A stretch of 64,000 nt of DNA from Candidatus Woesearchaeota archaeon (GTDB lineage: Archaea > Nanobdellota > Nanobdellia > Pacearchaeales > GW2011-AR1). The first letter of the stretch is position 1. Each line of letters begins with the position of its first letter. The stretch covers positions 31,401-95,400 of the forward strand of contig CAYPFA010000001.1 in NCBI GenBank assembly GCA_964410025.1, written 5' to 3'. This document shows positions 20,301-40,144 of the stretch, piece after piece. The notes below the pieces were generated by a model, which saw only the letters and a list, made by a program, of their open reading frames with translations, was not told the DNA's origin and did not search any database. The translations under genes were made by a program, and so were the position numbers.

Positions 20301-20406
20301 GGGCCTATAAGCTAATGAACCATCGTGGTTGCTTATGGGTAAATAATAAATAAGGGCCTATAAGCTAATGAACCATCGTGGTTGCTTATGGGTAAATAAT
20401 AAATAA
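20301..20406 (+). repeat. two tandem 53-bp units, each starting with the first 17 nt of tRNA-Val
   Basis: Unit = GGGCCTATAAGCTAATG + AACCATCGTGGTTGCTTATGGGTAAATAATAAATAA. Identical copies lie at 20301-20353 and 20354-20406, and the third period begins the real gene at 20407. The unit is self-complementary (CCTATAAGC/GCTTATGGG and AACCA/TGGTT). Confidence 0.85.
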
Positions 20407-20477
20407 GGGCCTATAAGCTAATGGTAGACTCTCTCGCTTACACCGAGATGGCGGAGGTTCGATCCCTCCTGGGCCCA
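20407..20477 (+). tRNA. tRNA-Val (anticodon UAC)
   Basis: Acceptor GGGCCTA/TGGGCCC (one G-U), with T8, A14, G18G19 and A21. Anticodon arm TCTCG-CTTACAC-CGAGA and T arm GGAGG-TTCGATC-CCTCC. Discriminator A, and CCA is not encoded. The D stem has one C-A mismatch. Confidence 0.8.
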
Positions 20478-20503
20478 TTTAATATTTATAATTGAACCGG
20501 AGC

Positions 20504-20605
20504 TGGCGGAGGCGAAAATTTCGCTTTGAGTAAAAATAAATTAAGACAGAAAGCAATTTTTACGAAATGCAAAATTTGAGGAGATCCCTCCTGGGCCCAT
20601 TTAAT
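20504..20605 (+). repeat. partial 3' copy of tRNA-Val with 70 nt inserted in the T loop
   Basis: 20504-20512 TGGCGGAGG equals tRNA nt 44-53. A 70-nt insert follows (20513-20582). Then 20583-20605 GATCCCTCCTGGGCCCATTTAAT is identical to 20461-20483 (tRNA nt 57-73 plus 6 nt of flank). Confidence 0.7.
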
Positions 20606-20651
20606 TAAATACAATATAAATTCTTTTAAACCTATAGAAATTCCTTAATTC

Positions 20652-21107
20652 ATGCACATAAAAAATTTAGCAGATAGTTTGAATGTTACACCAGTTCCAA
20701 ATGTTGTTTGCAACGGAGATTTAATCGAAGTCCACAGAGGAATCGGCTGGCTAAAAAATACAATTGGAACAACCGATTTTCAAGAAACCTTACACAGATT
20801 TCATCCAGGACATCGAATGGGCGGAAATCATTATCATAAAAATAAAATTGAAGTTATAACAGTTTTAGAAAATCCTCTAGAAATTCATCTCGTAGACCCA
20901 AAAACAAAAACTTATTGGAATCAAGAAATACAACCAAATCACCAATTTACACTCGTCCCAGAAATCGCACACGCATTATTTTATAGAGGAAATAACCTAG
21001 CAATTGTTCTCGAACATGCCTCATTGGTTTTCAACCCAGCAGATCCAAGAAAAGACGTAATTCCATTTCAAATATTAGACAAAGAAACATATAATCAAAT
21101 TTACTAA
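20652..21107 (+). CDS. cupin-fold protein
   Basis: GGNHYHKNKIE (G..HxH....E) and PEIAHAL resemble the two cupin motifs. Confidence 0.5.
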   Translation: MHIKNLADSLNVTPVPNVVCNGDLIEVHRGIGWLKNTIGTTDFQETLHRFHPGHRMGGNHYHKNKIEVITVLENPLEIHLVDPKTKTYWNQEIQPNHQFTLVPEIAHALFYRGNNLAIVLEHASLVFNPADPRKDVIPFQILDKETYNQIY

Positions 21108-21108
21108 T

Positions 21109-21684
21109 TTAATTTCCAATCAAAACTTTTAAAATTCTATTCTGAATTTCTTCAACACTTCCAATCCCATCAACTTCAGAAACATCAGCGCCAGTATTGT
21201 CGTAATAATCTAAAATAGGAAAAGTTTCATGCTCATAAACTTCAAACCTTTTTTTTATCGTCTCTTCATTATCATCCGCTCTTCCCTGATGTTGGGCCCT
21301 CAACAAAAGTCTTTTCATTAATTCCTCTTCATCCGCAACTAAATTAATTATTCTCAAATTAGCATCATCAATTTCTTCAAGCATCTTATCTAATTCTCTC
21401 GCCTGAAAAACAGTTCGTGGATATCCGTCAAGTAAAATCCCCTCAGCTGAATCTTTATTTTCTTCCAAAAAATTTCCAACAAGCTTATTGGTGATTTCAT
21501 CAGAAATTAATTTTCCGCCATCCATTATTGCTGCAATTTCTTTACCAAAATCAGAACCCGATGCTTTTTCTTTTCTAAATAAAGCTCCAGTAGACAAATG
21601 CAAATAACCTAAATTCTTCGCAACTAATTCAGATTGAGTTCCTTTGCCAACTCCAGGCGCACCAAATAAAATTAATACTTCCAT
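21109..21684 (-). CDS. adk: adenylate kinase
   Basis: GAPGVGKGTQ P-loop, LSTGALFR, LLDGYPRT. Confidence 0.85.
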   Translation of the reverse strand: MEVLILFGAPGVGKGTQSELVAKNLGYLHLSTGALFRKEKASGSDFGKEIAAIMDGGKLISDEITNKLVGNFLEENKDSAEGILLDGYPRTVFQARELDKMLEEIDDANLRIINLVADEEELMKRLLLRAQHQGRADDNEETIKKRFEVYEHETFPILDYYDNTGADVSEVDGIGSVEEIQNRILKVLIGN

Positions 21685-21707
21685 TTTAAATATGAATTTT
21701 TACTTTT

Positions 21708-24700
21708 CTACTTTTCTACTTTTCCAATCTTACTTAAAATATCATTAACTTGAGAAGTCATTGCTTTTTGTTGCTCTGGTGAAATAACTTTTATAACCTT
21801 TTTCTCTTGAACCGGTTGAGCAGATTTCTGTTGTTGCATCTGTTGTGGTTTTACAATTATTTTCTGAATGGAAAGAATTTTCGGATTAGGTTTGTGATGT
21901 ATATTTATCTGCATAACTTTATTCTGAATAGGCTTTTGCGTTTGTATAACAACCGTTTTTCTATTTTGATTCTGTTGAACATTCATTCCTTTCATCTGTC
22001 CAATTTCCTGTCTAACAATATTTCTTATTTCATCTCTGATTGAAACAGAATTACTTGGTAAACCTTTTTTTTGAGGATTTTGCTTCAATAAATTTTTATC
22101 TCCGCCAGCTTTCTGAGCCAAGTTCTTAGCATTATTAACAACATTTGTCATTTTTGCAGCAGCTTTTTTTGCTTCAATTTTTCCTTTAATCACAGCCTGA
22201 GCAGCAGCCAATATTGCAATAGGAACTCTGTAAGGCGAACATGAAACATTACTTAATCCAATTCTATGACAGAATTCTACAGATGCAGGATCTCCGCCAT
22301 GTTCTCCACAGATTCCCATGTCCATATCTTTCTTTACACTTCTAGCTTTTGTTACAGCCATTCTCATAATTCTACCGACTCCTTCTTGATCAATTGTTTG
22401 GAATGGATCTTTTTCAAAAATATTTTTAGCTAAATAGGTAGGAATAAATTTACCAGCATCATCTCTTGAAAACCCTAAAGTTGTTTGAGTCAAGTCATTT
22501 GTTCCGAAAGACATAAATTCTGCAATCTTTGCAAGCTCGTCAGCAACAACAGCAGCTCTTGGAAATTCAATCATTGTACCAATTTTATATTTAACAACTC
22601 CTTCAGCTTTTGTATCTTTAGCAGCTTTCTTAACAATATCAACAATTAATTGAAACTCAACAGTTGAAATAATATTTGGAATTTCAATTTCTGGAATTGC
22701 GTTTATTCCTTGTTTTTTACATTCTATCGCAGCCTCAAAAACTGCTCTTGCTTGCATTTCAGAAATTTCAGGATAAACAACTCCAAGTCTACATCCTCTA
22801 AATCCCAACATTGGATTAAATTCGTGAAGCTCGTCGATCTTTGCCTTGATTTTTGCAACTGGCATATTTATTTTTTTAGAAAGTTCTTCAATTTCCTTAT
22901 CTTCTTTTGGTAAAAATTCATGTAATGGCGGATCTAAGAATCTTATAATTACCGGTAAATTATTCATTTCTCTAAATATTCCTTCAAAATCAGATCTTTG
23001 TAATGGAAGTAATTTCTCCAAAGCTTTTCTTCTACCCGCTTCATCATCAGCTAAAATCATTTCTCTTACCGAGTCAATTCTATCGCCTTCGAAAAACATA
23101 TGCTCTGTTCTTGTTAAACCAATTCCTTCAGCGCCAAATCCTCTTGCAATTTTAGCATCGCCTGGAGTATCAGCATTTGCTCTTACGCCAAGTCTTTTTG
23201 TCTTTTGAGCCCATTGCATTAATGTTCCAAATTCGCCAGCAAGAATTGGATCGATTACAGCCAAAGATCCTTTGTAAAAATCCCCTGTTGTTCCATCAAG
23301 TGTTAAATAATCTCCTTCCTTCAAAACCTCTCCGCCAATTGTCATTGTTTTCTTTTTTTCATCGATAATTAATTCAGAACATCCAGCAATACAACACTTA
23401 CCCATTCCTCTTGCAACTACAGCCGCATGTGAAGTCATTCCGCCTCTAGCAGTTAAAATTCCTTGAGAAACATGCATTCCCTTAATATCGTCAGGGGAAG
23501 TTTCAAGTCTTACTAAAATAACTTTTTCATCCTTTTCCACTGTCCATTCTTCAGCAACTTCTGCGTTGAAAACAATTTTACCAACAGCTGCACCAGGTGA
23601 AGCAGGCAAACCTTTTCCTAAAACATTAACTTTTGTTTTCGCAACCGGGTCAATTCTCTTGTGCAATAATTGATTAATTTGTTGTGGATCAACTTTCATT
23701 AAAGCCTCTTCTTCCGTCAATAATTTTTCTTTAACCAATTCAACAGCAATTCTAACAGCAGCAAGTCCAGTTCTTTTTCCATTTCTCGTCTGTAACATAT
23801 ACAATTTTCCTTCTTGTACTGTGAATTCAATGTCTTGCATATCCTTGTAATGTTTTTCTAAAGTTTGTCTAATTTCCAATAACTGCTTGTAAACAACCGG
23901 CATATCTTTTTCTAATCTTGCGATTGGCTCAGGTGTTCTAATTCCAGCAACCACGTCTTCGCCTTGAGCATTAATCAAATATTCGCCATAAAATTTATTT
24001 TCTCCATTTGAAGGATTTCTTGTAAAACAAACTCCAGTTCCAGATGTTGGTCCTAAATTTCCGAAAACCATTGCCTGAACATTAACGGCTGTGCCCAAAA
24101 GTCCTTTAATATCGTTCAATTGTCTGTACGTGATTGCTCTTGTATTATTCCACGAACTAAAAACAGCATCGACAGCCATAATTAATTGTTCTCTTGGGTT
24201 TTCTGGAAAAGATTTTCCTTTTTCTGCTTTAATCAAATCTTTATATTTTTGTACAATAATTTTCAAATCTTCAACTGTTAATTCAGTATCAATTTTAATT
24301 CCTTTTGTTTTCTTTTGATTATCTAAAATATGTTCAAATTTATCATGATCAACTTGCAAAACTACGTCGCCAAACATTTGTAAAAATCTTCTGTAAGAAT
24401 CGTAAGCAAATCTTGGATTTTGGGATTTCTGCGCCAAAGCCTCAACTGTTTTATCGTTTAAACCTAAATTCAAAATTGTGTCCATCATTCCTGGCATTGA
24501 AACCGCAGCACCAGAACGAACAGAAACTAAAAGTGGTGATTTATCATCATTAAATTTCATTCCAACTTTTTTTTCTAATTCAATAATAGCAGCGTCGATT
24601 TGTCCCTGTAATTCAGCCGGATATTTTTTTCCATTTTTATAATAAGCATCACAAGTTTCAGTAGAAATTGTAAATCCATCAGGAACTGGTAATCCCAAAT

Positions 24701-24791: not shown

Positions 24792-24848
24792 ACAAAACTA
24801 TTCTAAAAATTTGGTTTATAAATATTATGGTAATGAAAAAGATAAATT

Positions 24849-24929
24849 AATATTAAAATTAAAGAGCACTACAAATCTTTTTAAATCCTCGAAAAGTTAC
24901 ATTCTTAGGCAGTCGTGGTTAAGTGGTAG
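24849..24929 (+). repeat. 81-bp direct repeat, left copy (tRNA-Gly promoter region plus first 21 nt of the tRNA)
   Basis: AATATTAAAATTAAAGAGCACTACAAATCTTTTTAAATCCTCGAAAAGTTACATTCTTAGGCAGTCGTGGTTAAGTGGTAG is identical to 32151-32231. Downstream of nt 21 the sequence diverges into AT-rich DNA. Confidence 0.8.
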
Positions 24930-25035
24930 TTAAGTACCTTGTAGTATAATATATTTTGTGTTTACAATAGATACAATAACGACTCTTTAGTGACAAAATA
25001 GATAGATTTAAAATATTGTTTTTTATATAGATTAT

Positions 25036-26481
25036 ATGGTAGAGACAATATTGCTGGTTGGATTTGGTCATCACGCTAGAAGAATCTATTATCCTGTCTT
25101 AAATGAGGCAAGGGAGAAATATGATTTTATTATTGTAGATGTTGATAACCAAAAAGAAAGTATTGAAGGATTTTTTGCAGAAAGAGAACATAAGCCAAAG
25201 AAGATTATTTTATTAAAACAATTTTCAGAAGAGTTGCCAGAATTACCTCAAGAAACTAAGGCAATTCTTGATGCTGTAGTTGATAATTATAAAATAAAAG
25301 GAATGATCATATCTACTGATCCTCTTTATCATTTACACTATGCAAAATGGGCTCTAAAAAGAGAAATTTCTATTCTAATGGATAAGCCAATTAGTGCCCG
25401 TAAAAATATGTCTAGTGATGTGAACCAAGCCGAAAAGTTAAATAAGGATTATCAGGAGCTTTATGATCTCTATAGTACAAAAAGAAATAAGATTTTGTTC
25501 TCAGTTGTGTCACAAAGAAGATTTCATAGCGGCTTTCAAAAAGCAAAAGAGTTAATTAAAGAAGTTTTTGAAAAAACAAACTGTCCGATAACGTCTATAC
25601 AAATTAACCATGCAGATGGACAGTGGAGATTGCCAAATGAAATTATAGACATAGATTATCATTCATTTAATCAGGGATTTGGAAAATGTTCTCACTCTGG
25701 ATATCATTTTATTGATCTTCTTACGTTTTTATTTGAGGGTGCTACGAATGAAAGTAAGAAAGTAGACAATGTGGAAGTTTTTTCTAGTTTTCTAACTCCT
25801 CTAGATCATCTAAATCAGATTAGTTTAGAGGATTATGACAAATTATTTAGTAATTTTAGAGATTATAACAAATATAGTCATGAAGAATTAAAGAGAAAAA
25901 TGAGATTATTTGGAGAGATTGACGCATTTATTAATATGAATTTCAAGATTGGAGAAAATATAATCACTCTTTGTAGTTTAAATCTAGTACATAATGGATT
26001 CTCTCAGAGAGGTAATTTAATTCCAAATAAAGATCTATATAAAGGAAATGGGAGAGTAAGGCACGAAAGCTATATCATACAACAAGGTCCATTTCAATGT
26101 TTGCACATAGATTCTCTTCAATCTTCTGAAATTAAGGCAAACTCTGAGCCAAATTATGATATAGGCGGTGAGTATCATTTCGATATACATATTTTTAGGA
26201 ATGATAAGTTTAATAGCAAGTGGAAGAATTATGAAAAAATATCTATAAGACAATTACAGAAAAATAAAATGCTTAATTTATCTAGGGGACATCAAGAAGA
26301 TGCTAGAAGAGAAGCTACTTTTGAATTTTTGAATTATTTGGAGGGAGAGAGGAAAAAAGAATATGTGTCGGATTTCGCGCTTCATAAGAATACTGTGAAG
26401 CTTATAGCAGGAATTTACAAGTCTTCAGTCTTGAAACTAAATAATTCTAATCCATTGGTTAAAATTTCTTATGACTCCTAA
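25036..26481 (+). CDS. Gfo/Idh/MocA-like NAD(P)-dependent oxidoreductase
   Basis: N-terminal Rossmann start ILLVGFGHHARRIYYPVL, plus ISTDPLYHLHYAKWALKREISILMDKPIS (the EKP-like motif of the family). Confidence 0.6.
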   Translation: MVETILLVGFGHHARRIYYPVLNEAREKYDFIIVDVDNQKESIEGFFAEREHKPKKIILLKQFSEELPELPQETKAILDAVVDNYKIKGMIISTDPLYHLHYAKWALKREISILMDKPISARKNMSSDVNQAEKLNKDYQELYDLYSTKRNKILFSVVSQRRFHSGFQKAKELIKEVFEKTNCPITSIQINHADGQWRLPNEIIDIDYHSFNQGFGKCSHSGYHFIDLLTFLFEGATNESKKVDNVEVFSSFLTPLDHLNQISLEDYDKLFSNFRDYNKYSHEELKRKMRLFGEIDAFINMNFKIGENIITLCSLNLVHNGFSQRGNLIPNKDLYKGNGRVRHESYIIQQGPFQCLHIDSLQSSEIKANSEPNYDIGGEYHFDIHIFRNDKFNSKWKNYEKISIRQLQKNKMLNLSRGHQEDARREATFEFLNYLEGERKKEYVSDFALHKNTVKLIAGIYKSSVLKLNNSNPLVKISYDS

Positions 26482-27181
26482 AATATACGTAGTTGGTTTT
26501 GATGGCTTGCATAGATCTGGGAAAGGTACTCAAATTAATTATTTAAAAGAATATCTTACTGCAAGTGAGAGTCCTCATGTTGTTATTCGGGGAGATGGCA
26601 CTAGGCGGGGAAAAGGAGAGTTATCTTATGATCCAAAGTCAACTTGGTGGCAATTTAATTATGATTATTTTTTTAAACCAGATTCTTCCCCAAGCGAGAC
26701 TTTATATAAAAGGAATTTGCTCTATCAAAGAATTTCAAGAGAGGCTCAATTTTGGCTAAGAAGGGGATTGCCAACTATTGCTAGAGATTCTTCTGCAAAT
26801 AGAGCATTTTTAGTAATGGATCGAACTTTCTTATCTAGGTTATTTGTTATGAGGCAGATATGTCCGTCAATTAGCATAGATGAGGCTCTAAATTCTTATA
26901 ATCCAAATAATTCTAATATTGTTGAGTCTATTATACCAGATATAACCTTTGCTCTAGATGTTTCTAAAACAGAGTTACTCAGAAGGTGCGAAAGTGCAAC
27001 GGATCAGCCAGATAAGGCGGATTTTAGAAGGAACAATTTATTGAATCACTATGGGCTTTATGAGAAAGTTCTGGACGAAGTTTGTAGAGATTCGAGATTT
27101 AATGTTTGTCGTGTACCTGGGGAGTCTTCTCCGGAGGAGATCCATTCTTTTGTAAAAAAAGTAGTAATGGAGATGAAATGA
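26471..27181 (+). CDS. P-loop nucleoside/nucleotide kinase-like protein (dTMP-kinase-like fold)
   Basis: VVGFDGLHRSGKGTQ Walker A resembles the E/GxDGxGKST of thymidylate/deoxynucleoside kinases. Overlaps the upstream gene by 11 nt. Confidence 0.55.
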   Translation: MTPKIYVVGFDGLHRSGKGTQINYLKEYLTASESPHVVIRGDGTRRGKGELSYDPKSTWWQFNYDYFFKPDSSPSETLYKRNLLYQRISREAQFWLRRGLPTIARDSSANRAFLVMDRTFLSRLFVMRQICPSISIDEALNSYNPNNSNIVESIIPDITFALDVSKTELLRRCESATDQPDKADFRRNNLLNHYGLYEKVLDEVCRDSRFNVCRVPGESSPEEIHSFVKKVVMEMK

Positions 27182-28479
27182 GTGAAATTAAATGGTTCAA
27201 TTTTAAGAAAAACGACAGTAAAACAGATATATATTGTTCGAATGAAAAAAAATTGAAACTTTCTAGTTTGGCTATTATGAAAGAACTTGATTTGGCTTGG
27301 TTTAACTTTTTTGTAAAAAATACATCTAATGGGGGAGTATTGAAAAAAAATACATATGCTGAAGATTTTAATAAAGTGAGATTGGTACATATAACTTCTT
27401 CTTTCGATGAGATAGTTCGCACTGGAAAGATTTTCCCTAGCGGAGGAGGCTTAGGGTCTGTAATATATTGCTCACCCTTACATAAAGAAAATAGCGTTCA
27501 TAATCTATTTGAGCAATATCTTCATTTTCAGTTGCCAAAACATACTCCTAAAGAATTAACTCCGTTATGTATAGAGATCTCTTTAGAAAGAAGAGACAAG
27601 GATAATCTCAGTAGTTATGGAGTTGACTATACTAATTTTGGAGAGTTACATTGTATGGTGTGGAAAGTTCTGAAACGTGAACTTATGAAACCTTATATTG
27701 CAGAATTTGAAAATAAAATAAGTAGTCAAGTTATGAAATTACGAGATGTGTTTAATGTTTTTATAGATTATAACTTAAATTCGGTTTCTAGCAAAAAGTT
27801 AAGAGAATATTATAACAGCATTTTTATAGGGACCCCTTCCTTGAGATTCATTTTATATGAGATTCTTGCAGAATATATTTTATTATATCAAGACAATAAG
27901 AAGGCAGTTAAATATCGTGATATCGGTGAACTTTATAATTTGTCTCATAAGAAGTTTATATTTGATTTGTGCCCGTCTATGTTGAAAAGATTTAATATGA
28001 GGGAGTTTTTTATAAAAATAGAAGACATAGAGGAATATTTTTCTAAGTCTGATATCTTTGTTGAATTTAATAAGGATCAATTTGAGTGGTTTTTGAAGTG
28101 GAGAATGGGATTTTATATCAAGAAACTTTGTTTAAGGAAAATAGATTCTATAAACAGTTTTGATCAGTTAGTTTCAAATTATCCTAGGCTAGTTGGACAA
28201 ATAATTTATAGGGATTTCTTTGATAAAAATTTATTTGAACGAGTTAGAAGTAAAATTATATATCCTATGTGGAAAAAAGATAGAATTATTTGCCCTATTT
28301 ATCCAATTCTTCCAAAGGGCGAAGTTGGAGTAAATCCCTGTTTAGATGAATTGGGAGTGAAATATAAAATATATAAGGCAAAATATGACTCGAGAAGAGG
28401 AAAATTAATTTTATTGAAGGAGTTAAATATAAAATTAAATTCAGAATTAATATCTAAAGCCAAAACAACAGTAAGATGA
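27178..28479 (+). CDS. hypothetical protein (433 aa) with no recognisable motif
   Basis: Start chosen at MSEIKWFNF, where ATGA overlaps the kinase stop. The longer track ORF (27106) would overlap the kinase by 76 nt. Confidence 0.5.
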   Translation: MSEIKWFNFKKNDSKTDIYCSNEKKLKLSSLAIMKELDLAWFNFFVKNTSNGGVLKKNTYAEDFNKVRLVHITSSFDEIVRTGKIFPSGGGLGSVIYCSPLHKENSVHNLFEQYLHFQLPKHTPKELTPLCIEISLERRDKDNLSSYGVDYTNFGELHCMVWKVLKRELMKPYIAEFENKISSQVMKLRDVFNVFIDYNLNSVSSKKLREYYNSIFIGTPSLRFILYEILAEYILLYQDNKKAVKYRDIGELYNLSHKKFIFDLCPSMLKRFNMREFFIKIEDIEEYFSKSDIFVEFNKDQFEWFLKWRMGFYIKKLCLRKIDSINSFDQLVSNYPRLVGQIIYRDFFDKNLFERVRSKIIYPMWKKDRIICPIYPILPKGEVGVNPCLDELGVKYKIYKAKYDSRRGKLILLKELNIKLNSELISKAKTTVR

Positions 28480-29237
28480 GTATGCCTCTTTATTTAAAAA
28501 TTCAGAACAAAGTATTTGAAGATTTGCAGATTTTAGATTTAGAAACTTTAGAATGGATTAGAAGCAGACAAAATCCAAAGATATTTAGTATTTCTGAAAA
28601 TAAAGCCGATTTTAAACCTCTTAACGAAGAGGAAATAAAAGAAGTAATTCCCAAATTAGAATGGTTTAGTAATTCAAATAGGGCATTAAGTATTCATGGT
28701 AGATCACACGCAGTTAGAACTACTTTATTTTCATATGCTATTTGCAAATTAAATAATATTAGCAGTTATAAAAAGCATCTTGTTGCTGCTAGTATACATG
28801 ATATCTCTAGGGGTGTTGATAATGATGATTTTGATCATGGTGAAAGGTCAGCTAATTGGTTTAAAGAAAATCATAGTTTGTTTAGAGGGTTAACACAAAA
28901 AGAAAAAGAAGAGATATATTTTGCAGTGTACTATCATGATATTGAGCAAGAAAATATTCCAATAGAAATATTAGACAAAAATAGGGAGATTATCAATGTT
29001 CTCAAGTGTGCAGATGCATTAGATCGTTTTAGGTTGCCAAAAGAGAAATGGTGGCCAAATAGAAATTTTTTCAAGATAGATATTCCCGACTGGGTTTTTG
29101 AAATGGCTAAATGGTTAGTTTATCAATCAGAACTAGATATTATTAAATATTCTAAAGACCCAGTAGATGCTGTTTTAAGTTTAGGATTTAAGGCAGGATT
29201 AAATAAGTTTATAAATAAATCTTCTATTCCTATCTAA
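28476..29237 (+). CDS. HD-domain phosphohydrolase
   Basis: HGRSHAVR ... AASIHDISRG ... YYHD ... CADALDR gives the H..HD..D pattern. ATGA overlap with the upstream gene. Confidence 0.6.
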   Translation: MSMPLYLKIQNKVFEDLQILDLETLEWIRSRQNPKIFSISENKADFKPLNEEEIKEVIPKLEWFSNSNRALSIHGRSHAVRTTLFSYAICKLNNISSYKKHLVAASIHDISRGVDNDDFDHGERSANWFKENHSLFRGLTQKEKEEIYFAVYYHDIEQENIPIEILDKNREIINVLKCADALDRFRLPKEKWWPNRNFFKIDIPDWVFEMAKWLVYQSELDIIKYSKDPVDAVLSLGFKAGLNKFINKSSIPI

Positions 29238-29647
29238 TGGACGAAAAATACTTGTTTAAGGTTATTGTGGCAGCAGTTATATTTAATGAAGATAAGAAAT
29301 TTCTATTAGCAAAAAGAAGCTTAACTGAAGACGTCTTGCCGGGATATTGGGGTATACCTGGTGGGAAAGTAGAAACACGAGGCAATATACCTAATATTTT
29401 AGAGTACGAAGTAAAAAGAGAAGTCTTGGAGGAGGTAGGTATAGAGGTTGATGATTTAAAATATATAGAAAGTCATATGAATGATAGTGGGAAATTGAAT
29501 GTTTGTTTTTCGTGTAAAATTTCTGGCGGAGTTCCAAAAGCACTAGAAGATACTTCAGAAGTTGGATGGTTTTCCCTAAAAGAAGCGGAATGCATGCAAC
29601 TAACCCCTCATACCTTAGAAAGATTAAAGACTGCAATAGGTAATTAG
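29237..29647 (+). CDS. Nudix hydrolase
   Basis: Nudix box GGKVETRGNIPNILEYEVKREVLEEVGI. TAATG overlap with the HD gene. Confidence 0.8.
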   Translation: MDEKYLFKVIVAAVIFNEDKKFLLAKRSLTEDVLPGYWGIPGGKVETRGNIPNILEYEVKREVLEEVGIEVDDLKYIESHMNDSGKLNVCFSCKISGGVPKALEDTSEVGWFSLKEAECMQLTPHTLERLKTAIGN

Positions 29648-31326
29648 TTCTTTTTTATTAAAAAATTTCCTAGCGCCAGATAATCTAGGCCACTAGAATA
29701 GAAAGCCTTTATCGCATCACGAGGAGTACAAACAATCGGTTCACCCTTTCCGTTAAAGGAGGTATTCATAACAACTGGTATCTTAGTTATTTTTTCGAAT
29801 TCTTCAATGAGTTTATGAAATTTTTCATTTACTTCTTTTTTTACCGCGTGCGGTCTAGCCGTGCCATCTACATGAACTACTGCCGGTATATCTTTTATTT
29901 TTGAGCTTACTACATTAGATCCAACAATCATAAAACTAAAGCAGTCATTCAATTCAAAGAATTTATTCTTTCTCTCATAAAGTATACTTGGAGCGAATGG
30001 CCTCCATAACTCTCTTTCTTTTATAATATTTACATTTTTCCACATGTTAATGTTTTTAGGATCAGATAAAACAGATCTGTTACCTAGTGATCTTGGTCCG
30101 AATTCCATTCTTCCCTGAAACCACCCTACTATTTTTCCATCACTTATTAGTTTTGCGCACTTAGAACATATATTGCTTTCTTTTGTGTAACTTATTTTGA
30201 ATTTTTTAAGTTCTTTTTCTATTTCATTATCACTAAATTCTGGCCCAAAATATGTTGTTTCATATCTATTATTTGTTTTTTTGTCAACTTTTGCAGAGTA
30301 TTCCAAAGCGGCGCCGATTGATGATCCAGCGTCATTTGAAGCTGGCTGAACATAAATTTCTTTTACTTTTTTAGATTCTAATATTCTTTGGTTAGCTATA
30401 CAATTAAGTGCCACCCCGCCACTTAAACATAATTTATCTTGCCCGGTTAATTTGACGGCCAAGTCTACCAGTTTTAGTATTTTCTTTTCTAGAACTTTTT
30501 GTGCAGATGCAGCAATATTTTTTTGAATGTTTGAAAAATCAACTGTTTTTGAGAATTCTCCTGTCATTTTGTTAAAGGAAGTATTTGTTTTGTCTTTTTC
30601 TCCAAAAAGATTCTCAAAGTTTTCAATCCATTTAGAAACAATAATTGTTTGTTGTCCTCTTTTATTTTTTAATTCTTTTGAGTCTAAGGTAATATTTATT
30701 GATTCTAGCTTTTTTATAATTTCTTCGTCTGGTTTTCCATAGGGTGCTAACCCCATTAATTTTCCTTCATCCCCGTTTCTCATTCCAATATATCTTTCTA
30801 TTGAGCTATAAAAATACCCTATAGAATCTTCGATTTTGTTGTTCCAAACTTTTTTTATTTTATTTCCCTTGCCCGCCCATATGGACGCAGAGCAATATTC
30901 GCCTTGCCCATCTATCACAAGTATAGCGGCATTCTCAAACCCAGAGCACCTAAAAGAGCTAGATGCGTGCGCCAAATGATGTTCTACGTAGCCAATCTTA
31001 GGTATTTTTTTGTATTGAAAATATTTTTTTGGAAAAAATTTATTTAATATATCTTCTGGAGGTACAGAGTAAATTGTTTCTCTATCTGGTCCGACATTTT
31101 CCCAATCCCAACTAAATACCACATAATCAATATCATCTAATTCTAGTTTTTGGCTATCTAGACAAGCTTTTACGCTTAATAATGGTAGAGAGTCATATGC
31201 ACGTTTTTTCCTAAGTAGTCTTTCTTCTTCTATTGCAAATTTTATTTCTCCATCTACTACGAGAGTAGCAGAGACATCGTGGTTAACACTAAGCCAGGGG
31301 GAGGCATTAATCCCTAAAATCTTCAT
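29644..31326 (-). CDS. carbamoyltransferase (NodU/CmcH/TobZ family)
   Basis: MKILGINASPWLSVNHDVSATLVVDGEIKFAIEEERLLRKK N-terminus and C-terminal NTSFNGKGEPIV..PRDA, typical of the family at 560 aa. Confidence 0.85.
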   Translation of the reverse strand: MKILGINASPWLSVNHDVSATLVVDGEIKFAIEEERLLRKKRAYDSLPLLSVKACLDSQKLELDDIDYVVFSWDWENVGPDRETIYSVPPEDILNKFFPKKYFQYKKIPKIGYVEHHLAHASSSFRCSGFENAAILVIDGQGEYCSASIWAGKGNKIKKVWNNKIEDSIGYFYSSIERYIGMRNGDEGKLMGLAPYGKPDEEIIKKLESINITLDSKELKNKRGQQTIIVSKWIENFENLFGEKDKTNTSFNKMTGEFSKTVDFSNIQKNIAASAQKVLEKKILKLVDLAVKLTGQDKLCLSGGVALNCIANQRILESKKVKEIYVQPASNDAGSSIGAALEYSAKVDKKTNNRYETTYFGPEFSDNEIEKELKKFKISYTKESNICSKCAKLISDGKIVGWFQGRMEFGPRSLGNRSVLSDPKNINMWKNVNIIKERELWRPFAPSILYERKNKFFELNDCFSFMIVGSNVVSSKIKDIPAVVHVDGTARPHAVKKEVNEKFHKLIEEFEKITKIPVVMNTSFNGKGEPIVCTPRDAIKAFYSSGLDYLALGNFLIKKN

Positions 31327-31582
31327 AAAAATAAATGATTAACTACCTTTAAATATTTAGCGCAACATTCAAATATAATAAAGAGTAATTACTTTTATGA
31401 AAAATAGGGTTCATAATATAATATAGATAATTCATCCAGTTCATAAAAAATATATAAAAACGCGTTAAAAACTATAGTTTCCTCAATTTATTATTGTGTT
31501 TGATCAATAAATAGGTTATTAGTAAAGAGTATTGCTAGAAGTAGCATATATAAAAAAATACCTAAAGAAGATTAAAATATTT

Positions 31583-32095
31583 TTAGGAATACAACTCTTT
31601 AAATTTAGATAAAAATAAAAAATCTCTTTTTAAAACAAATTGATGAGTATAAGCAGATGGAGAACATTTTTTTAATAAAAGAAGAGCTTCATCAAGAGGG
31701 ACCCAACAGATTTTAAATTTTTCATCTTTCTTTAAATAAGAATCTTTATCATTTTTAATATCAAAAGCATTGCAAATAAAACAATTAGAAATCTGAATTT
31801 GCCCATATTTGTTCTTATGCTCTGTGACTACTCCAAACTCTTTAAAACCATCAGCACTGCAATTAATCTCTTCTCTTATAATTCTTGAAAGAGCAGCTAC
31901 ATAGTCTTCGTTACCCAATATCTCTCCTCCTGGTAATTTGTAGTAATCATCACTATCAGATCTAATAATTGCGACATTCCTATTAGTGTCTAAAACAATT
32001 GCTCGTACAGTTTTTCTTAACCGAAACTCCTCTTTGTCCCAGATTATCTCTTTTCCAAAAACATCCATATCTGTTATCTCGTGTATAAATTGCAT
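31583..32095 (-). CDS. Nudix hydrolase (second copy in island)
   Basis: Nudix box GGEILGNEDYVAALSRIIREEINC. Confidence 0.75.
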   Translation of the reverse strand: MQFIHEITDMDVFGKEIIWDKEEFRLRKTVRAIVLDTNRNVAIIRSDSDDYYKLPGGEILGNEDYVAALSRIIREEINCSADGFKEFGVVTEHKNKYGQIQISNCFICNAFDIKNDKDSYLKKDEKFKICWVPLDEALLLLKKCSPSAYTHQFVLKRDFLFLSKFKELYS

Positions 32096-32150
32096 ATCTT
32101 ATATTAGAAAATTAAGTTTATAATTTTAACGTAGGTATATCACAAATAGC

Positions 32151-32231
32151 AATATTAAAATTAAAGAGCACTACAAATCTTTTTAAATCCTCGAAAAGTT
32201 ACATTCTTAGGCAGTCGTGGTTAAGTGGTAG
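32151..32231 (+). repeat. 81-bp direct repeat, right copy (functional promoter plus 5' part of tRNA-Gly)
   Basis: Identical to 24849-24929. The TTTTTAAAT TATA-like box is centred about 27 nt upstream of tRNA position 1. Confidence 0.8.
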
Positions 32232-32281
32232 AATATGACCTTGCCAAGGTTGTGACCCGAGTTCGATTCTCGGCGACTGCA
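32211..32281 (+). tRNA. tRNA-Gly (anticodon GCC)
   Basis: Acceptor GCAGTCG/CGACTGC and D loop AAGTGGTA. Anticodon arm TGACC-TTGCCAA-GGTTG and T arm CCGAG-TTCGATT-CTCGG. Discriminator A, and CCA is not encoded. Confidence 0.85.
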
Positions 32282-32329
32282 TAGAACAAAAGTGTTCAAC
32301 ATGAGAATCTTTATAAAATAAAATCATTG

Positions 32330-32372
32330 CCGAGAAGCGAAGGAGGAGAGTGAGATTCTCGGCGACTGCATA
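32330..32372 (+). repeat. partial 3' copy of tRNA-Gly with an expanded T loop
   Basis: CCGAG is followed by 19 nt (AAGCGAAGGAGGAGAGTGA) replacing TTC. Then GATTCTCGGCGACTGCATA is identical to 32265-32283 (tRNA nt 57-73 plus 2 nt). Confidence 0.7.
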
Positions 32373-32576: not shown

Positions 32577-32619
32577 TTCTAAGGAATATATGAAAAAGAT
32601 GAAAGGAGGTAAAAACAAA

Positions 32620-33003: not shown

Positions 33004-33093
33004 AGCAAGAAGCTTAAAATAAATTTTTTATTTTTTTTATTTTTTAATAGTTAGATTATTAAATATCGAATTATGTACTATAAGGAGGAAAAA

Positions 33094-33734: not shown

Positions 33735-33761
33735 AAAATAAAAAAATAAAATTTTTTGTGT

Positions 33762-34415: not shown

Positions 34416-34530
34416 ATTTTACCCCCCTTCATCTTTTTCATTACTTATACAAGGAGCACCCAACTATATAAGGGTTACTAACAGATAAAAATTTAGAAAC
34501 ATATTTAAACAAGATTAGATAAAAGATTTT

Positions 34531-35094: not shown

Positions 35095-35208
35095 TTTGAT
35101 AAACTATCCGATTCTCTTCGTAAATATTCACTTCTAATCTATTGACAAACACCTCCAGCCTAAAATTCCTCACCAACTCCTCTTAATTAATTCCCTTAAT
35201 CGCAGGTT

Positions 35209-36375: not shown

Positions 36376-36806
36376 TTTAGCTCCTTCTCATAAATAAACT
36401 GATTTTTACTCAATTTATATCTTTTGTTTTTATAAAATTTAAATGCTTTCGAACTTTTAAGACTAATCAACATCAAAAGTTTACAACCTCGTCGTGCATA
36501 TTCTTTCTCCATCCAGTCTAAACAAAAACTTCCGAGACCCTTATTTCTGAATTCTCCTTTAATTGCAAATTGTTCTAGCGATGCAACCTGCCCAGAAATA
36601 AACTGATAAGGATTTATCACAAAAAATCCAACAATTTTATTTTTATAAAAAACAGAATAAACATCACAATATCTGGAAAAAACTTTCAATTTTTTCAGAG
36701 CAAGTTTCGGCGTCCAACTTTCATTATACTCTTTTGAAAAAACGTCCGAATAAATTTCAGCAATTTTTCCATATTCCCAAAACCTAGTTTTTCTGATTGT
36801 TATCAT
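36372..36806 (-). CDS. GNAT family N-acetyltransferase
   Basis: EFRNKGLGSF acetyl-CoA-binding motif (Q/RxxGxG/A). Confidence 0.7.
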   Translation of the reverse strand: MITIRKTRFWEYGKIAEIYSDVFSKEYNESWTPKLALKKLKVFSRYCDVYSVFYKNKIVGFFVINPYQFISGQVASLEQFAIKGEFRNKGLGSFCLDWMEKEYARRGCKLLMLISLKSSKAFKFYKNKRYKLSKNQFIYEKELK

Positions 36807-38035
36807 AATAATTCCTTCTCTAATTTAATTAGATTTTTCTTATTTATTAAGGTTTCTTTCTCAAGTCTAGCCAGTGCGGCTTTTTTGTGTCCGTCAAGTC
36901 CCTCAAGTTTCGCCAGTTTAGCAGCAATATTTTGAAGCGCCTTGCTATTCTTATTTATTTTTTGGAAAGTAGTAATTTTAATAAAATCTTTTACAGATAA
37001 TCCAGATGCATATCTTGCAGCACCTCCAGTAGGTAATGTGTGATTTGTTCCAGAGCAATAATCTCCAAAGACTTCTGCGGAATAATTTCCAATAAATAAA
37101 GATCCGTAATTACTTAATTTACTAATTATTTTTTCTGGATTCTTTATTTGTAATTCTAGGTGTTCCGGAGCCATGGAGTTAGAAATATCTATGGCTATTC
37201 CGAGATTCTTTACGACTTGAATCTTGCTTTTTCTTAATGAGATGCGAGCGACATCTTTTGTTTTTAATTCCGCCAACTGAATTTTTAATTCGCAAGCTAC
37301 ATCTTCAGCGAGTTTTTTTGATGTTGTTAGTAAATTGGCTTTCGCTTCCATATCGTGTTCTGCTTGAGCCAATAAATCGGCGGCAATAAACTTTGGAACA
37401 GCAGTCTCATCGGCTATTATTAATACCTCACTTGGTCCAGCAATAAAGTCAATCCCAACATCACCATAAACCATTCTCTTTGCTTCTGCTACATATTTAT
37501 TTCCCGGTCCCACAATTTTATCCACCATTGGCACTTGCCTTGTCCCATAGGCCATTCCAACTATTGCCTGAACACCACCAATGTTAAAAATTTCATCTGC
37601 ACCAGCGATATCTGCTGCCACAATACTTATTGGAGAAATTTTAGGAGAACAAACTATTATTTTTTTCACGCCAGCTACTTTGGCAGGAATAACCGTCATA
37701 AGTGCAGTAGATGGGAGAGGATATCTTCCGCCAGGAACATAACATCCAACACAATCTAAGGGAATAATTTTCTGTCCGATTACTCCATAATTTTTTTTAA
37801 CACTAAAATTCCTAAATTGTTTCATTTGCGATTTTGCAAAACTTCGGATATTTTTAGCAGCCATAATTAATGTTTCTATTGCGTTTCTATCGGTTTTGGC
37901 ATATGCTTCTTTGATTTGTTTTTTTGTTAATCGAAAGCTAAAATTATCATTGTCATCGTAAAATTTATTATATTTTAAAATAGCCAAATCTCCATTTTGT
38001 TTTACATCTTTAATTATTTTTTTTACAATTTTCAT
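36803..38035 (-). CDS. hisD: histidinol dehydrogenase
   Basis: YVPGGRYPLPSTALM, AGPSEVLIIAD, QAEHD and NHTLPTGGAARY motifs. Confidence 0.9.
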   Translation of the reverse strand: MKIVKKIIKDVKQNGDLAILKYNKFYDDNDNFSFRLTKKQIKEAYAKTDRNAIETLIMAAKNIRSFAKSQMKQFRNFSVKKNYGVIGQKIIPLDCVGCYVPGGRYPLPSTALMTVIPAKVAGVKKIIVCSPKISPISIVAADIAGADEIFNIGGVQAIVGMAYGTRQVPMVDKIVGPGNKYVAEAKRMVYGDVGIDFIAGPSEVLIIADETAVPKFIAADLLAQAEHDMEAKANLLTTSKKLAEDVACELKIQLAELKTKDVARISLRKSKIQVVKNLGIAIDISNSMAPEHLELQIKNPEKIISKLSNYGSLFIGNYSAEVFGDYCSGTNHTLPTGGAARYASGLSVKDFIKITTFQKINKNSKALQNIAAKLAKLEGLDGHKKAALARLEKETLINKKNLIKLEKELL

Positions 38036-38745
38036 TTTTTATCTCTCCTTAAATTTTCAAAAATGGAATAGTCGGTTGTAGATTTTGCGAGTATTTTTAT
38101 TGTGTTAAATATGGGGAAATCTGCACAATTGTCATCTACAATTAAAGGAAGTTCCGTGCATCCCAAAACTATTCCTTCTGCACCACACTGTAGTAATTTT
38201 TGCGATATTTTTAATAAATAATTCTTATCCACCTCAGTTTTATTCCCACCCAATACTCTTAGGATTATGTTGTTTATTTCTTCTATTTCATTATTGGACG
38301 GGGTTAGAATGTCAATACCATATTCTTTAAAATATTTTTGATAGAGTTTAAAATTATAAGTTGTTTTGGTGGCAAGCAATCCCACTTTTTTAATATTTTT
38401 TTTAGTTAAAAATATTGCAACTTCTTCTATGAGATTTAATGTCTTGATTTGAGCTGCATTGCTATAGGCGTCATAAATAATATTTATAGTATTGCATGGT
38501 ATGGAAATAATTTCAGCCCCAAGGATTTCGAGTTTTTTACAGCAATCTCTCATCATTTCCTCTGCGAGTTGAAGATTGGAAACATTTTCAACAATATCTG
38601 GAATTGGTAAATTTATAATATACATCTCCGGATATTCTGAGTCATATACGGCACCGTATTCATTTTGAAAAATATTTATTATCTCTTGGTAAAAGCGTAT
38701 TGTAGCTTCAGGACCCATGCCTCCGATAATGCCTATTTTTTTCAT
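38032..38745 (-). CDS. aspartate/glutamate racemase family protein
   Basis: IGIIGGMGPEAT N-terminus, with the two catalytic Cys contexts IPCNT and LGCTELP. Confidence 0.8.
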   Translation of the reverse strand: MKKIGIIGGMGPEATIRFYQEIINIFQNEYGAVYDSEYPEMYIINLPIPDIVENVSNLQLAEEMMRDCCKKLEILGAEIISIPCNTINIIYDAYSNAAQIKTLNLIEEVAIFLTKKNIKKVGLLATKTTYNFKLYQKYFKEYGIDILTPSNNEIEEINNIILRVLGGNKTEVDKNYLLKISQKLLQCGAEGIVLGCTELPLIVDDNCADFPIFNTIKILAKSTTDYSIFENLRRDKK

Positions 38746-39038
38746 TTTTTATCTCTCCTTGCATTTTCTTTATAAATATCTTCAAGCGTAATTTCAGCTT
38801 CGGTCATATAAACTAAAAGAAAATACATCAAATCTGCGCATTCCCAAATAAGATTCTCCTTGTCTTTTGATGTTATAACTTCTGCCGCTTCTTCTATTAA
38901 CTTTCTTTTCAAAAGTTCTTTATCTGCAACCAACTTTTTAGTGTAAGAATTTTCTTCTCCACTGGCAATTTTCGTTTTAATTTTTTCATAGAGCTCTTCT
39001 AAATTAAGTTCGTTATTCGTTTTCATTTTTACCTCCAA
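38742..39038 (-). CDS. hisE: phosphoribosyl-ATP pyrophosphatase
   Basis: NSYTKKL, KLIEEAAEV and ECADLMYFLLV motifs of the HisE/MazG-like family. Confidence 0.85.
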   Translation of the reverse strand: MEVKMKTNNELNLEELYEKIKTKIASGEENSYTKKLVADKELLKRKLIEEAAEVITSKDKENLIWECADLMYFLLVYMTEAEITLEDIYKENARRDKK

Positions 39039-39585
39039 TTATTACAATATCCGATTCGAAAATTTTATCATAGACTTTTAATCCGGCTTCTTCAGCCGAC
39101 TTTCCGGAATAAACAATATCGACGACTAAATCAACAATCTTGTTGACAAAAGCAGATTCGGTAGCACCAGAAAGATATATTTTTTCAAAAACAAAGCCGC
39201 GTTCAAATTCAAGTCTCGCCAAATATTTCTTGGCGATTTTGGAGTATTTCCGATTGATGCAAACTCTTAGTTTTTTTTCAAGCTCTTCAATTTTTTTATT
39301 TTTGTCTCCAAGTAAACAGAGAGTTGGTTTGCCATAAACGCAATCAGAATCGTTCCATGAGACAGTTTTAATTTTCTCAAATTTACTATTTCTATTTCTA
39401 ATACAAAATTCTTTCAGTAAATCCTCTCCAGTGATGCCAATGACTTTCTTGTTTTGCCTAAAAAGCTCATCAACAAATAACGGAACATCCTCTCCACGAA
39501 CCTCCAATATCTCTCCAGAATACTCCTTAGAAATTTCTTTACAAATAGCAAGTCCAGAATTTTTCGGTACGATGAATATAATCAC
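39013..39585 (-). CDS. hisG: ATP phosphoribosyltransferase, short form
   Basis: 190 aa with a GTG start. GITGEDLL and DLVVDIVYSGKSAEEAGL match the HisG catalytic region, and there is no C-terminal regulatory domain. Confidence 0.8.
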   Translation of the reverse strand: MIIFIVPKNSGLAICKEISKEYSGEILEVRGEDVPLFVDELFRQNKKVIGITGEDLLKEFCIRNRNSKFEKIKTVSWNDSDCVYGKPTLCLLGDKNKKIEELEKKLRVCINRKYSKIAKKYLARLEFERGFVFEKIYLSGATESAFVNKIVDLVVDIVYSGKSAEEAGLKVYDKIFESDIVIIGGKNENE

Positions 39586-39783
39586 AGCTTTGTTGAGCTA
39601 CCATGTTATACTCCGAGAAATAAAAAATTGCGAGTAGGGAATCGGATTTGTAGATTTATAGGCAGATGGGCTGGAAGGTGCGAGCAAAACGCTTTTGCTT
39701 TTATCTTGCACAGCAACTATTATTTCGTTTTTCGCAAATGCATTTTGTGAGTAAAGAATCGGACTGACCGATTCACATTTAAG

Positions 39784-39927
39784 GGCGGAAGGTGTGAGAC
39801 CTTTAGAGAAGGTCATCCCCACGGGAAATCGGACTTGTCCGATGAACACATTAAAGGCGGAAGGTGTGAGGCCTTTAGAGAAGGTCATCCCCACGGGAAA
39901 TCGGACTTGTCCGATGAACACATTAAA
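39784..39927 (-). repeat. two tandem 72-bp units, each a cloverleaf-like fold ending in the tRNA-His 3' terminus
   Basis: Unit (minus strand) = TTTAATGTGTTCATCGGACAAGTCCGATTTCCCGTGGGGATGACCTTCTCTAAAGG[C/T]CTCACACCTTCCGCC. Copies lie at 39927-39856 and 39855-39784 with 1 mismatch. The last 13 nt equal the T-stem 3' strand, acceptor 3' strand and C73 of the adjacent tRNA-His. A degenerate further copy CGCACCTTCCAGCC lies at 39682-39669. Confidence 0.85.
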
Positions 39928-40083
39928 GGCGGAAGGTGTGAATCGGACACACGTCTCACGAGTTCTGTCTTGTTGTCTGTCGCCAGACAGGAAGGATAGT
40001 TTTTCTACCTTCCTAGAGGCTCTTTTTTCTAAAAAGAACCTGTAGACCACAGTCGCGTATTCTACCATTGAACTACATCCGCC
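39928..40083 (-). tRNA. tRNA-His (anticodon GUG) with an 84-nt intron at 37/38
   Basis: The 5' exon is encoded G-1, GCGGATG, D arm GTTC-AATGGTA-GAAT, then CGCGA-CTGTGG. The intron spans 40046-39963. The 3' exon is C-TCGTG, AGAC, T arm GTGTG-TCCGATT-CACAC, CTTCCGC and discriminator C73 opposite G-1. Splice sites lie in 3-nt bulges (GG|T and AA|C) flanking a CTGT/ACAG helix, a relaxed bulge-helix-bulge. Confidence 0.7.
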
Positions 40084-40097
40084 ATATTTATTTCTGA

Positions 40098-40144
40098 ACG
40101 TCTCTGAGCCACAGTCACGCATTCTACCATTGAACTACCGAGCT
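40098..40144 (-). pseudogene. intron-less partial tRNA-His-like copy (about positions 1-47) immediately upstream of tRNA-His
   Basis: AGCTCGG-TA-GTTCAATGGTAGAAT-G-CGTGA-CTGTGG-CTCAGAGACGT. The D arm and anticodon loop are identical to tRNA-His, but the acceptor strand differs, there is no G-1 and no matching 3' strand. A TATA-like ATTTAAAG lies about 28 nt upstream. Confidence 0.5.

Follow-up and report, generated by a model that had tools for sequence, protein, structure and literature searches.

The stretch analyzed here, a 64-kb window of contig CAYPFA010000001.1 from a Candidatus Woesearchaeota archaeon (W in the comparisons below), carries three tRNA genes that are accompanied by partial copies of themselves. 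The window has a G+C content of 32% and encodes the ribosomal proteins L35Ae and L10e, both of archaeal type; its closest protein homologues are labelled Pacearchaeota, Woesearchaeota or Nanoarchaeota archaeon. By ARAGORN and Rfam there are exactly three tRNA genes, tRNA-Val(TAC), tRNA-Gly(GCC) and tRNA-His(GTG), the last of which was missed by ARAGORN and matched by Rfam at 43.8 bits. An earlier interpretation, made from the letters only and called the sequence-only reading below, had claimed that all three genes have satellites consisting of their own fragments, and every fragment that it listed was found (Table 1). Outside the genes, 13-mers of the tRNAs occur 15 times for Val, 14 times for Gly and 11 times for His, compared with 0.05, 0 and 0.35 times, respectively, in shuffled windows. 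Loci of metagenomic relatives are given L-numbers. Thirty-six related loci, with 55–80% amino-acid identity, came from a metagenome scan that used as query the 617-aa nucleotidyltransferase-like gene adjoining tRNA-Val, and in most of these tRNA-Val is syntenic with this gene; further relatives came from protein searches and contig look-ups.

Table 1. tRNA genes, promoters, displaced fragments and inserts in the window (nt numbers in the remarks refer to tRNA positions).
Feature	Position	Strand	Remarks
TATA-like box of tRNA-Val, CTTTAAAAG	20267–20275	+	Conserved with L109, L127 and L086
Val 5′ unit 1, 53 nt	20297–20349	+	ATAA, copy of tRNA nt 1–17 (20301–20317) and 32 further nt
Val 5′ unit 2	20350–20402	+	100% identical to unit 1
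tRNA-Val(TAC), intact	20407–20477	+	ARAGORN and Rfam
Val 3′ module interior, 99 nt	20484–20582	+	T-arm copy and AT-rich hairpin homologous to that of L092
Displaced Val 3′ end, GATCCCTCCTGGGCCCATTTAAT	20583–20605	+	Standard nt 57–73 and 6-nt trailer TTTAAT; direct repeat of 20461–20483
Displaced Gly promoter region and tRNA nt 1–21	24849–24929	+	TATA box at 24878–24885; left border of island
Island, 7.2 kb	24930–32150	.	No recognizable recombinase
tRNA-Gly(GCC), intact	32211–32281	+	Promoter and nt 1–21 lie inside the right-hand 81-nt repeat
Gly 3′ module interior, 70 nt	32284–32353	+	Hairpin GCCGAGAA...TTCTCGGC (32329–32363), purine-rich loop
Displaced Gly 3′ end	32354–32372	+	Standard nt 57–73 and TA, 19 nt exact; direct repeat of 32265–32283
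TATA-like box of tRNA-His, TTTTTATACCC	40242–40252	-	Aligns with the promoters of L124 and L126
Hairpin-containing insert, 70 nt	40144–40213	-	Begins at the start point of the relatives' tRNA-His, after the old promoter
Displaced, diverged 5′ part (~nt 8–49) of an intron-less tRNA-His allele	40094–40143	-	30-nt core 93% identical to the gene
tRNA-His(GTG)	39928–40082	-	Exon 1, 40047–40082; intron, 39963–40046; exon 2, 39928–39962
Two 72-nt tandem units, 97% identical	39784–39927	-	Each a 59-nt spacer and the last 13 nt of tRNA-His
Older diverged His 3′-end copy, CGCACCTTCCAGCCC	39668–39682	-	One of two decayed copies
Decayed ancestral tRNA-His T-loop and 3′ end, TCCGATTCCCTACTCGCA	39629–39646	-	Beside the conserved hisG leader (39578–39606)

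At tRNA-Val, the TATA-like box lies 34 nt ahead of the first displaced 5′ fragment and 140 nt ahead of the real gene. The 32-nt part of the first 5′ unit comprises an inner hairpin, AACCAtcgTGGTT (20318–20330), the complement of tRNA nt 3–12 (20331–20340) and an A-rich tail. Downstream of the gene, TGGCGGAGG at 20504–20512 is a copy of standard nt 45–53, comprising the variable loop and the 5′ strand of the T-stem, and is followed by 70 nt and then by nt 57–73. The two upstream copies of nt 1–17 and the split downstream copy described by the sequence-only reading are thus present. Loci L109 (80%) and L127 (78%), the closest relatives, match W exactly in tRNA-Val and promoter but lack the 5′ units and the 3′ module, and when W is aligned with these two loci the 106 nt of the two Val units appear as a clean insertion.

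The position of the promoter was compared across relatives. Of 19 satellite-free Val loci, 18 have a TTTAAA box whose start lies at −31 to −34 relative to tRNA nt 1. Where a 5′ module is present, this spacing is kept to the displaced fragment and not to the gene, from which the box is separated by −140 in W (106 nt inserted), −93 in L095/L096 (63 nt) and −94 in L106 (61 nt). Promoters ahead of the 5′ fragments had been listed as a misfit for integration scars; the objection falls, because an insertion inside the gene is expected to leave the promoter with the displaced fragment. The fixed spacing upstream of tRNA-Val (L086–L120) also recalls Nanoarchaeum, in which tRNA transcription is leaderless and RNase P is lacking. 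If leaderless transcription applies here, a leader of 53–106 nt would have to be removed by some other means where a 5′ module is present.

The same promoter placement, at the canonical distance from the 5′ fragment and not from the gene body, could be read as a sign of split or intron-containing tRNA genes, with the fragment serving as exon 1 and the splicing endonuclease cutting out the units. The lineage does use bulge–helix–bulge (BHB) introns, as in tRNA-His, which has an intron of the hBH type, and in the tRNA-Gly of L120, which has a related one. However, an intact, uninterrupted tRNA gene stands beside every fragment, no tRNA could be made from fragments that lack nt 18–43, and there is no complementary leader and trailer of the split-tRNA type. 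When the 53-nt and 106-nt Val units were treated as introns, BHB geometry could not form: the central helix was 4 bp, made of palindromic tetramers only, with flanking helices of 0–1 bp, while the His intron, used as a positive control, worked. The suggestion that the Val units are intermediates in split or intron-gene evolution is therefore very unlikely.

At tRNA-Gly, an exact 81-nt repeat, consisting of 60 nt of promoter region and tRNA nt 1–21, is found at 24849–24929 and 32151–32231, 7,302 nt apart. The two copies bracket an island, as had been claimed. The gene content of the island is nucleotide-metabolism-like, with five genes on the plus strand (oxidoreductase-like, dTMP-kinase-like, an unknown 432-aa protein, HD-domain and NUDIX proteins) and two on the minus strand (a carbamoyltransferase and a second NUDIX protein). 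On the 3′ side, the claim of a split copy did not hold for Gly: counted from 32348, the copy extends over 25 nt with 2 mismatches and is essentially contiguous. The supposed nt 49–53 piece, CCGAG (32330–32334), is not significant alone, this 5-mer being found 36 times in the window; it closes an 8-bp hairpin with the displaced 3′ copy. The tRNA-Gly of L105 has a similar hairpin or 3′ module downstream, resembling that of the window. The split T-loop copy, also put forward as not fitting a simple scar, is real only at Val, where it recurs in relatives as a conserved hairpin.

Two further observations concern the island. Its five plus-strand genes sit behind the displaced tRNA-Gly promoter, with a predicted leader corresponding to tRNA-Gly nt 1–21. 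The carbamoyltransferase matches the phage auxiliary-gene family phrog_1601 (E = 6.5e-122); no close viral relative of it was found in an IMG/VR protein scan.

The tRNA-His locus, whose array is seen in the window only, has fragments on both sides of the gene. The upstream fragment had been taken as about nt 1–47 and corresponds to ~nt 8–49; the two or three downstream copies became four, two of them exact and two decayed. The present gene begins only ~11 nt beyond the intron-less fragment and has an intron of 84 nt, not 87, with a canonical hBH motif (h, CGCGA/TCGTG; H, CTGT/ACAG; bulges GG-T and AA-C). The exact 13-nt copies of the 3′ end are at 39856–39868 and 39784–39796, and the spacers hold the T-loop-like sequence TCCGATT. 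In L122–L126, an intron-less tRNA-His lies 25–40 nt upstream of hisG, heading the his operon, and in L124, L125 and L126 there are no tRNA-His fragments. When the window is aligned to these relatives, both flanks are conserved, with the promoter to the left and the hisG leader to the right, and TCCGATTCCCTACTCGCA falls at the position of their T-loop and 3′ end. Because it aligns in place with the 3′ end of the relatives' tRNA, the most distal fragment is the decayed ancestral end. From there towards the gene follow progressively newer ends, 39668–39682 first and then the pair of exact copies. Comparison with siblings, which the sequence-only reading had proposed, thus yielded relatives without satellites at both Val (L109, L127) and His (L124–L126).

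Several features of the His region were observed in addition. tRNA-His lies directly upstream of hisG (25–40 nt) in the ancestor of W and in relatives with 66–76% identical HisG (W 39578–40252; L124 3700–4010; L126 3720–4010; L122 1–700), and 27–29 nt around the hisG start, acATGGTAGCTCAAaAAAGCTGTGATTAT, are conserved at the DNA level; the arrangement suggests that tRNA-His is co-transcribed with the operon for its own amino acid. About 25 nt upstream of the tRNA-His promoter, GGAGTTATCGGCACAGTTTGTAA (~40285–40310, minus strand), are conserved in W, L124 and L126. T-box-like or tRNA-mimic control of the his operon by the array was considered and is not supported: the array consists of copies of the tRNA 3′ end and not of its complement, relatives with the same tRNA-His/hisG arrangement lack it, and its units fold no better than shuffles. 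A 174-aa open reading frame (ORF; 39598–40122, minus strand) that overlaps tRNA-His and the repeat array is almost certainly spurious, and misannotation of this locus is to be expected from gene callers and ARAGORN alike.

The His intron (39963–40046, minus strand) resembles the 78-nt intron of tRNA-Gly(GCC) in L120 (1250–1398, minus strand), with a score of 31 against 17.9 ± 2.9 (p = 0.002); the tRNA-Gly of W itself and the tRNA-His of the relatives are intron-less. From the sequence, this looks like an intron family moving between tRNA genes. BHB introns have reportedly been transposed between tRNA genes in Thermoproteales (Fujishima et al. 2010), where related intron sequences likewise occur in different tRNA genes. 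The likeness concerns the intron and not the satellites, which have no BHB.

Across a DPANN clade, small modules are found at ~40% of the tRNA-Val loci. Copies of the 3′ end occur in L090/L091, L092, L095, L096 (two modules), L120 and L129, and in decayed form in L103 and L130; copies of the 5′ end occur in L095/L096, L106, L129, L130 and perhaps L089. By alignment score, 7–8 of 34 distinct loci have 5′ satellites and 9–10 have 3′ satellites. The satellites match their own local tRNA in every case, though the tRNA-Val sequences differ among relatives, and near-identical strains can differ in copy number, L095 having one 3′ module and L096 two. Satellites were found at ~10 of 33 tRNAs in the archaeal loci scanned, whereas none of 30 bacterial tRNAs had true partial copies, the matches there being neighbouring paralogous tRNA genes or spurious introns only. 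The tRNA satellites are lineage-specific; tRNA genes in general do not have them.

At the Val repeat, short-read unitigs break off, as would be expected if the repeats were artefacts of metagenome assembly. This explanation has practically no standing, and was ruled out by agreeing independent assemblies: the Val locus has the same sequence in two independent JGI assemblies, and analogous modules occur in many independent assemblies of relatives. Two Logan contigs end at the Val repeat, so that the units are not spanned, and the exact number of tandem units is unverifiable without long reads.

At the 5′ and 3′ sides of Val and Gly, and at the 3′ side of His, the extra DNA is bounded by a direct repeat of a terminal part of the tRNA, one copy of which lies in the intact gene. 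Repeat lengths are 12–23 nt (81 nt at the island), and the gene boundary anchors them to within 0–6 nt. The 3′ repeats stop 1–6 nt beyond the discriminator base, and the small 5′ repeats begin 0–4 nt ahead of nt 1 (W, L092, L095, L105, L106, L120, L129 and L130); the Gly 5′ repeat reaches 60 nt upstream of the gene, taking in the promoter. The 3′ breakpoint is at the same T-loop position, before G57, in Val, in Gly and across lineages. Since they are variable in length and anchored at the gene, the repeats fit att identity blocks and not a fixed target duplication. A transposon or miniature inverted-repeat transposable element with target-site duplication was rejected for this variability and anchoring, and the inverted repeat includes the duplicated tRNA segment.

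A related arrangement is seen in L088, where the DNA after tRNA-Val holds small islands (with a MazG-like gene and with an MNT/HEPN toxin–antitoxin pair), each bounded by fragments of tRNA-Val nt 30–73. In this array (4655–6250 in tRNA-oriented coordinates), a repeated arm motif, CTCGTTACAAAAGGTTACCTTT, bounds the islands, and one of the fragments comes from a different tRNA-Val allele. No integrase is retained in the L088 array.

The empty Val and His sites in relatives, the kept promoter spacing, the repeats at gene ends, the stacked His ends and the copy-number difference between near-identical strains thus support the view that the satellites are insertion scars. Judging from their sequence, they belong to a type of scar already known, the att-like direct repeats that remain after insertion in the D-loop or T-loop region. 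We consider it probable that the loci arose by att-type insertion into tRNA genes, with displacement of the gene ends, tandem amplification or accretion, decay of the old copies, and an enzyme acting in trans. According to this model, the three tRNA genes would be insertion hot spots. The 5′ satellites would go back to an insertion in the D-loop region of the gene and the 3′ satellites to one in the T-loop region, each by an incoming segment with its own copy of the tRNA end. The old end would be pushed outward and the gene rebuilt, leaving a direct repeat of the attL/attR type. The inserts would range from hairpin modules of 36–140 nt up to the 7.2-kb gene island; tandem units may result from repeated insertion or from unequal crossing-over between the repeats, and older displaced ends would decay in place. 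Recombination would be site-specific, with the integrase presumably encoded elsewhere, in a virus, a plasmid or another part of the genome, and the small modules may be miniature non-autonomous elements or worn-down larger ones. Their hairpins would pair the displaced fragment with a complementary stretch, either for recognition by the recombinase or under selection; in the latter case, the hairpin might mask the extra tRNA end, which would otherwise compete with the real acceptor, D or T stems in the pre-tRNA.

Integration scars had been the default explanation of the sequence-only reading, and this proved largely right: the empty Val and His sites, the kept box spacing and the repeats bracketing the island all speak for it, and what it leaves unexplained is that no recombinase was found in the window or beside the satellites of relatives. 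The more exotic alternatives were mostly not supported.

That no recombinase was found is one reason to consider that the satellites arose without one, through errors of replication or repair at tRNA genes, which are highly structured and much transcribed, by fold-back or template switching, slippage, or microhomology-mediated repair. The 5′ modules are imperfect palindromes, with an outer arm made of the tRNA 5′ end and its inverted copy, and the 53-nt (100%) and 72-nt (97%) units are tandem, both in favour of such errors. Against this, module sequence outside the tRNA part is homologous in the distant hosts W and L092 (31 versus 15.5 ± 2.3), some of the inserts carry genes (the 7.2-kb island; the L088 toxin–antitoxin and MazG genes), the breakpoint before G57 recurs in Val, in Gly and across lineages, and the Gly 81-nt repeat includes a promoter. 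An origin by such errors thus seems unlikely.

Several observations also weigh against att-type insertion followed by decay. In line with the sequence-only reading, no integrase or recombinase was detected in the 64-kb window (~50 ORFs searched against Pfam, a subset also against NCBIfam and PHROGs, and a PDB sequence search), and none was found beside the satellites in relatives. Exact-pattern scans of IMG/VR with the Val 5′ 17-mer, the Gly 5′ 21-mer and the Val hairpin motif gave no attP-like match in a database in which DPANN viruses and plasmids are poorly sampled; the protein scan with the carbamoyltransferase of the island was negative too. For the Gly island no empty site was found: the available relatives do not share the synteny upstream of PPDK, L132 and L133 (PPDK identity 86% and 82%) have no tRNA-Gly at the corresponding position, and a genome scan with PPDK as query gave no syntenic genome. 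The sizes of the modules are narrow, with 3′ copies beginning 86–142 nt after tRNA-Val and 5′ units of 53–87 nt, and random decay of large elements should give a wider spread.

The remaining points of this kind concern the folds. Five 5′ modules (W, L106, L095, L129 and L130) share one predicted fold, in which the tRNA 5′ copy and its complementary stretch form an outer stem that encloses an inner hairpin, with z-scores of −3.5, −4.9, −2.0, −4.3 and −2.9, respectively. Within a lineage the stems are complementary at 5/5 and 6–7/7 pairs, against means of 1.6/5 and 2.5/7 across lineages; the stems in this count were taken from the predicted folds, so that it leans towards structure. L129 and L130 are 88% identical in the neighbouring gene and only 63% in the 5′ module, and the inner stem nevertheless survives two double substitutions (GCTGA/TCAGC versus ACCGA/TCGGT); in the 3′ hairpin of the two, an A-T pair is exchanged for G-C, and the displaced copy of L130 is decaying. 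The interior of the W Val 3′ module resembles that of L092 (score 31 versus 15.5 ± 2.3 for shuffles, in short alignments), although the hosts belong to distant clades in the neighbour-gene tree and the sister lineages of W lack the module. Compensatory hairpins and this homology count against passive scars, which should behave otherwise. Modules in L090, L120 and L129 have no sequence similarity to those of W, and no further copies of the module interiors were found in 1.8 Mb of sequence, too small a set to decide.

These properties could mean that the modules are functional leaders and trailers of tRNA transcripts, controlling processing, stability or termination, with the His array perhaps acting in his-operon expression and the match to the tRNA kept by selection or gene conversion. 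The shared 5′ fold, the complementarity that is found only within lineages and the inner stem preserved in L129/L130 would be expected of such RNAs; given the promoter placement, transcription is predicted to start at the displaced fragment, and the His array lies in the tRNA-His/hisG spacer of a conserved tRNA-His/his-operon arrangement. We nevertheless find a leader or trailer function improbable. The modules are patchy, the closest relatives with an identical tRNA lack them, their copy number varies among strains, and the module families of L090, L120 and L129 are unrelated to that of W. The 3′ modules and the His unit, with z-scores of −0.3 to −1.5, fold no better than shuffles, one displaced copy (L130) is decaying, and the his operon of relatives runs without the array. 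An Rfam search of 20000–40600 (E ≤ 1) gave tRNA only, plus one sub-threshold chance match over tRNA-Val. C/D-box small RNAs within the modules were also considered and rejected, as no box C/D motifs were seen by eye.

A further possibility is that the 50–160 nt modules are undescribed non-autonomous mobile elements specialized on the ends of DPANN tRNA genes. Each module would carry a replacement tRNA end and a hairpin that pairs with the displaced end, and would insert at a fixed D- or T-loop position with the help of a recombinase in trans, which might recognize the folded structure. Acceptor stems would be rewritten and introns imported, and tRNA genes would evolve by serial replacement of their ends. 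The mobility mechanism based on tRNA fragments that the sequence-only reading had raised gained some support, and we hold it as a tentative and rather doubtful proposal.

Insertion at att-type sites has close parallels in known systems. According to the literature, both the 5′ and the 3′ ends of tRNA genes serve as archaeal att sites, introns can be imported through attP, and integrase-less, att-flanked remnants, the cis-mobilizable elements (CIMEs), and tandem accretion occur. As in our loci, the insert in SSV1, pNOB8-type plasmids and PYG1 of Pyrococcus yayanosii is bounded by an intact tRNA gene and a partial direct 5′ or 3′ copy, with the repeat ending at the gene boundary, and in PYG1, just as at the Gly island, the partial copy precedes the complete gene. 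However, archaeal integrative elements are 9–23 kb or more, encode an integrase and have repeats of ~44 bp, whereas here most inserts are 36–140 nt with repeats of 12–23 nt, the large insert has an 81-nt repeat with a promoter, and no integrase was found. CIMEs at streptococcal tRNA genes have lost the integration genes and kept attL and attR, and form tandem arrays by further att insertion, much like the His stack, the L088 array and the doubled L096 module. They differ in being kilobase-sized remnants of bacterial integrative and conjugative elements, and compensatorily kept hairpins are not part of their description.

The His 5′ side is similar in form to Caldiarchaeum tRNA-Thr, where the rebuilt gene has an extra intron and is preceded by a 5′ fragment from an allele with fewer introns (Sugahara et al. 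2012). His likewise has a 5′ fragment without an intron ahead of a gene that has one of 84 nt, and the relatives are intron-less. In Caldiarchaeum, a 1.8-kb insert with a putative recombinase separates fragment and gene, compared with ~11 nt at His, where the 3′ end of the gene has also been replaced repeatedly. By analogy, the His locus agrees with a published model that has integrating elements displacing pieces of tRNA genes and bringing in introns.

On the 3′ side, the 72-nt His units, tandem downstream of the gene and each ending in a copy of the tRNA 3′ end, have the form of the distal repeats in the E. coli tyrT operon, which are 178-bp units, each ending in the last 19 nt of tRNA-Tyr, and are associated with rtT RNA. 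The tyrT repeats differ in organism and sequence, and lack both a 5′ counterpart and a hairpin pairing with the fragment; the Rfam covariance model for rtT did not match the His units or any other part of the region searched. What is unusual beside the known scars is the recurrence across a DPANN clade of structured, integrase-less miniature modules.

The 617-aa protein (18362–20215, minus strand) has a weak Pol-beta-type nucleotidyltransferase domain and more than 2,400 strong homologues, and everywhere in the clade its gene is a neighbour of tRNA-Val and of the genes for L35Ae and L10e. Between W and L109 on the one hand and L127 on the other, all with an identical tRNA (W 20267–20477; L127 2570–2690; L109 9433–9540), tRNA-Val and its promoter face opposite ways with respect to the 617-aa gene; the orientation of tRNA-Val has flipped several times across the clade, and gene order past tRNA-Val is not conserved. 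Directly upstream of the tRNA-Val promoter, L127 (1960–2571) and L129 (1542–2129) have a ~200-aa gene, 28% identical between the two and with a weak C-terminal helix-turn-helix in L127; an ORF cut by the start of the L130 locus has the same position, by a comparison made by eye only. Neither these ~200-aa helix-turn-helix proteins nor the 358-aa ORF adjoining the His locus of W proved to be a recognizable recombinase.

In practical terms, fragments of this sort mislead tRNA annotation, cause short-read assemblies to break at tRNA genes, and are markers of recombination hot spots within the reduced genomes of DPANN archaea. If the satellites are only scars, they are still a clean, documented case of serial insertion and decay at three neighbouring tRNA genes. 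If the modules are truly mobile, they would be the smallest known elements with tRNA genes as attachment sites, and would offer a case that can be sampled of mobile DNA driving tRNA gene disruption and intron gain, and of gene ends being overwritten by incoming copies.

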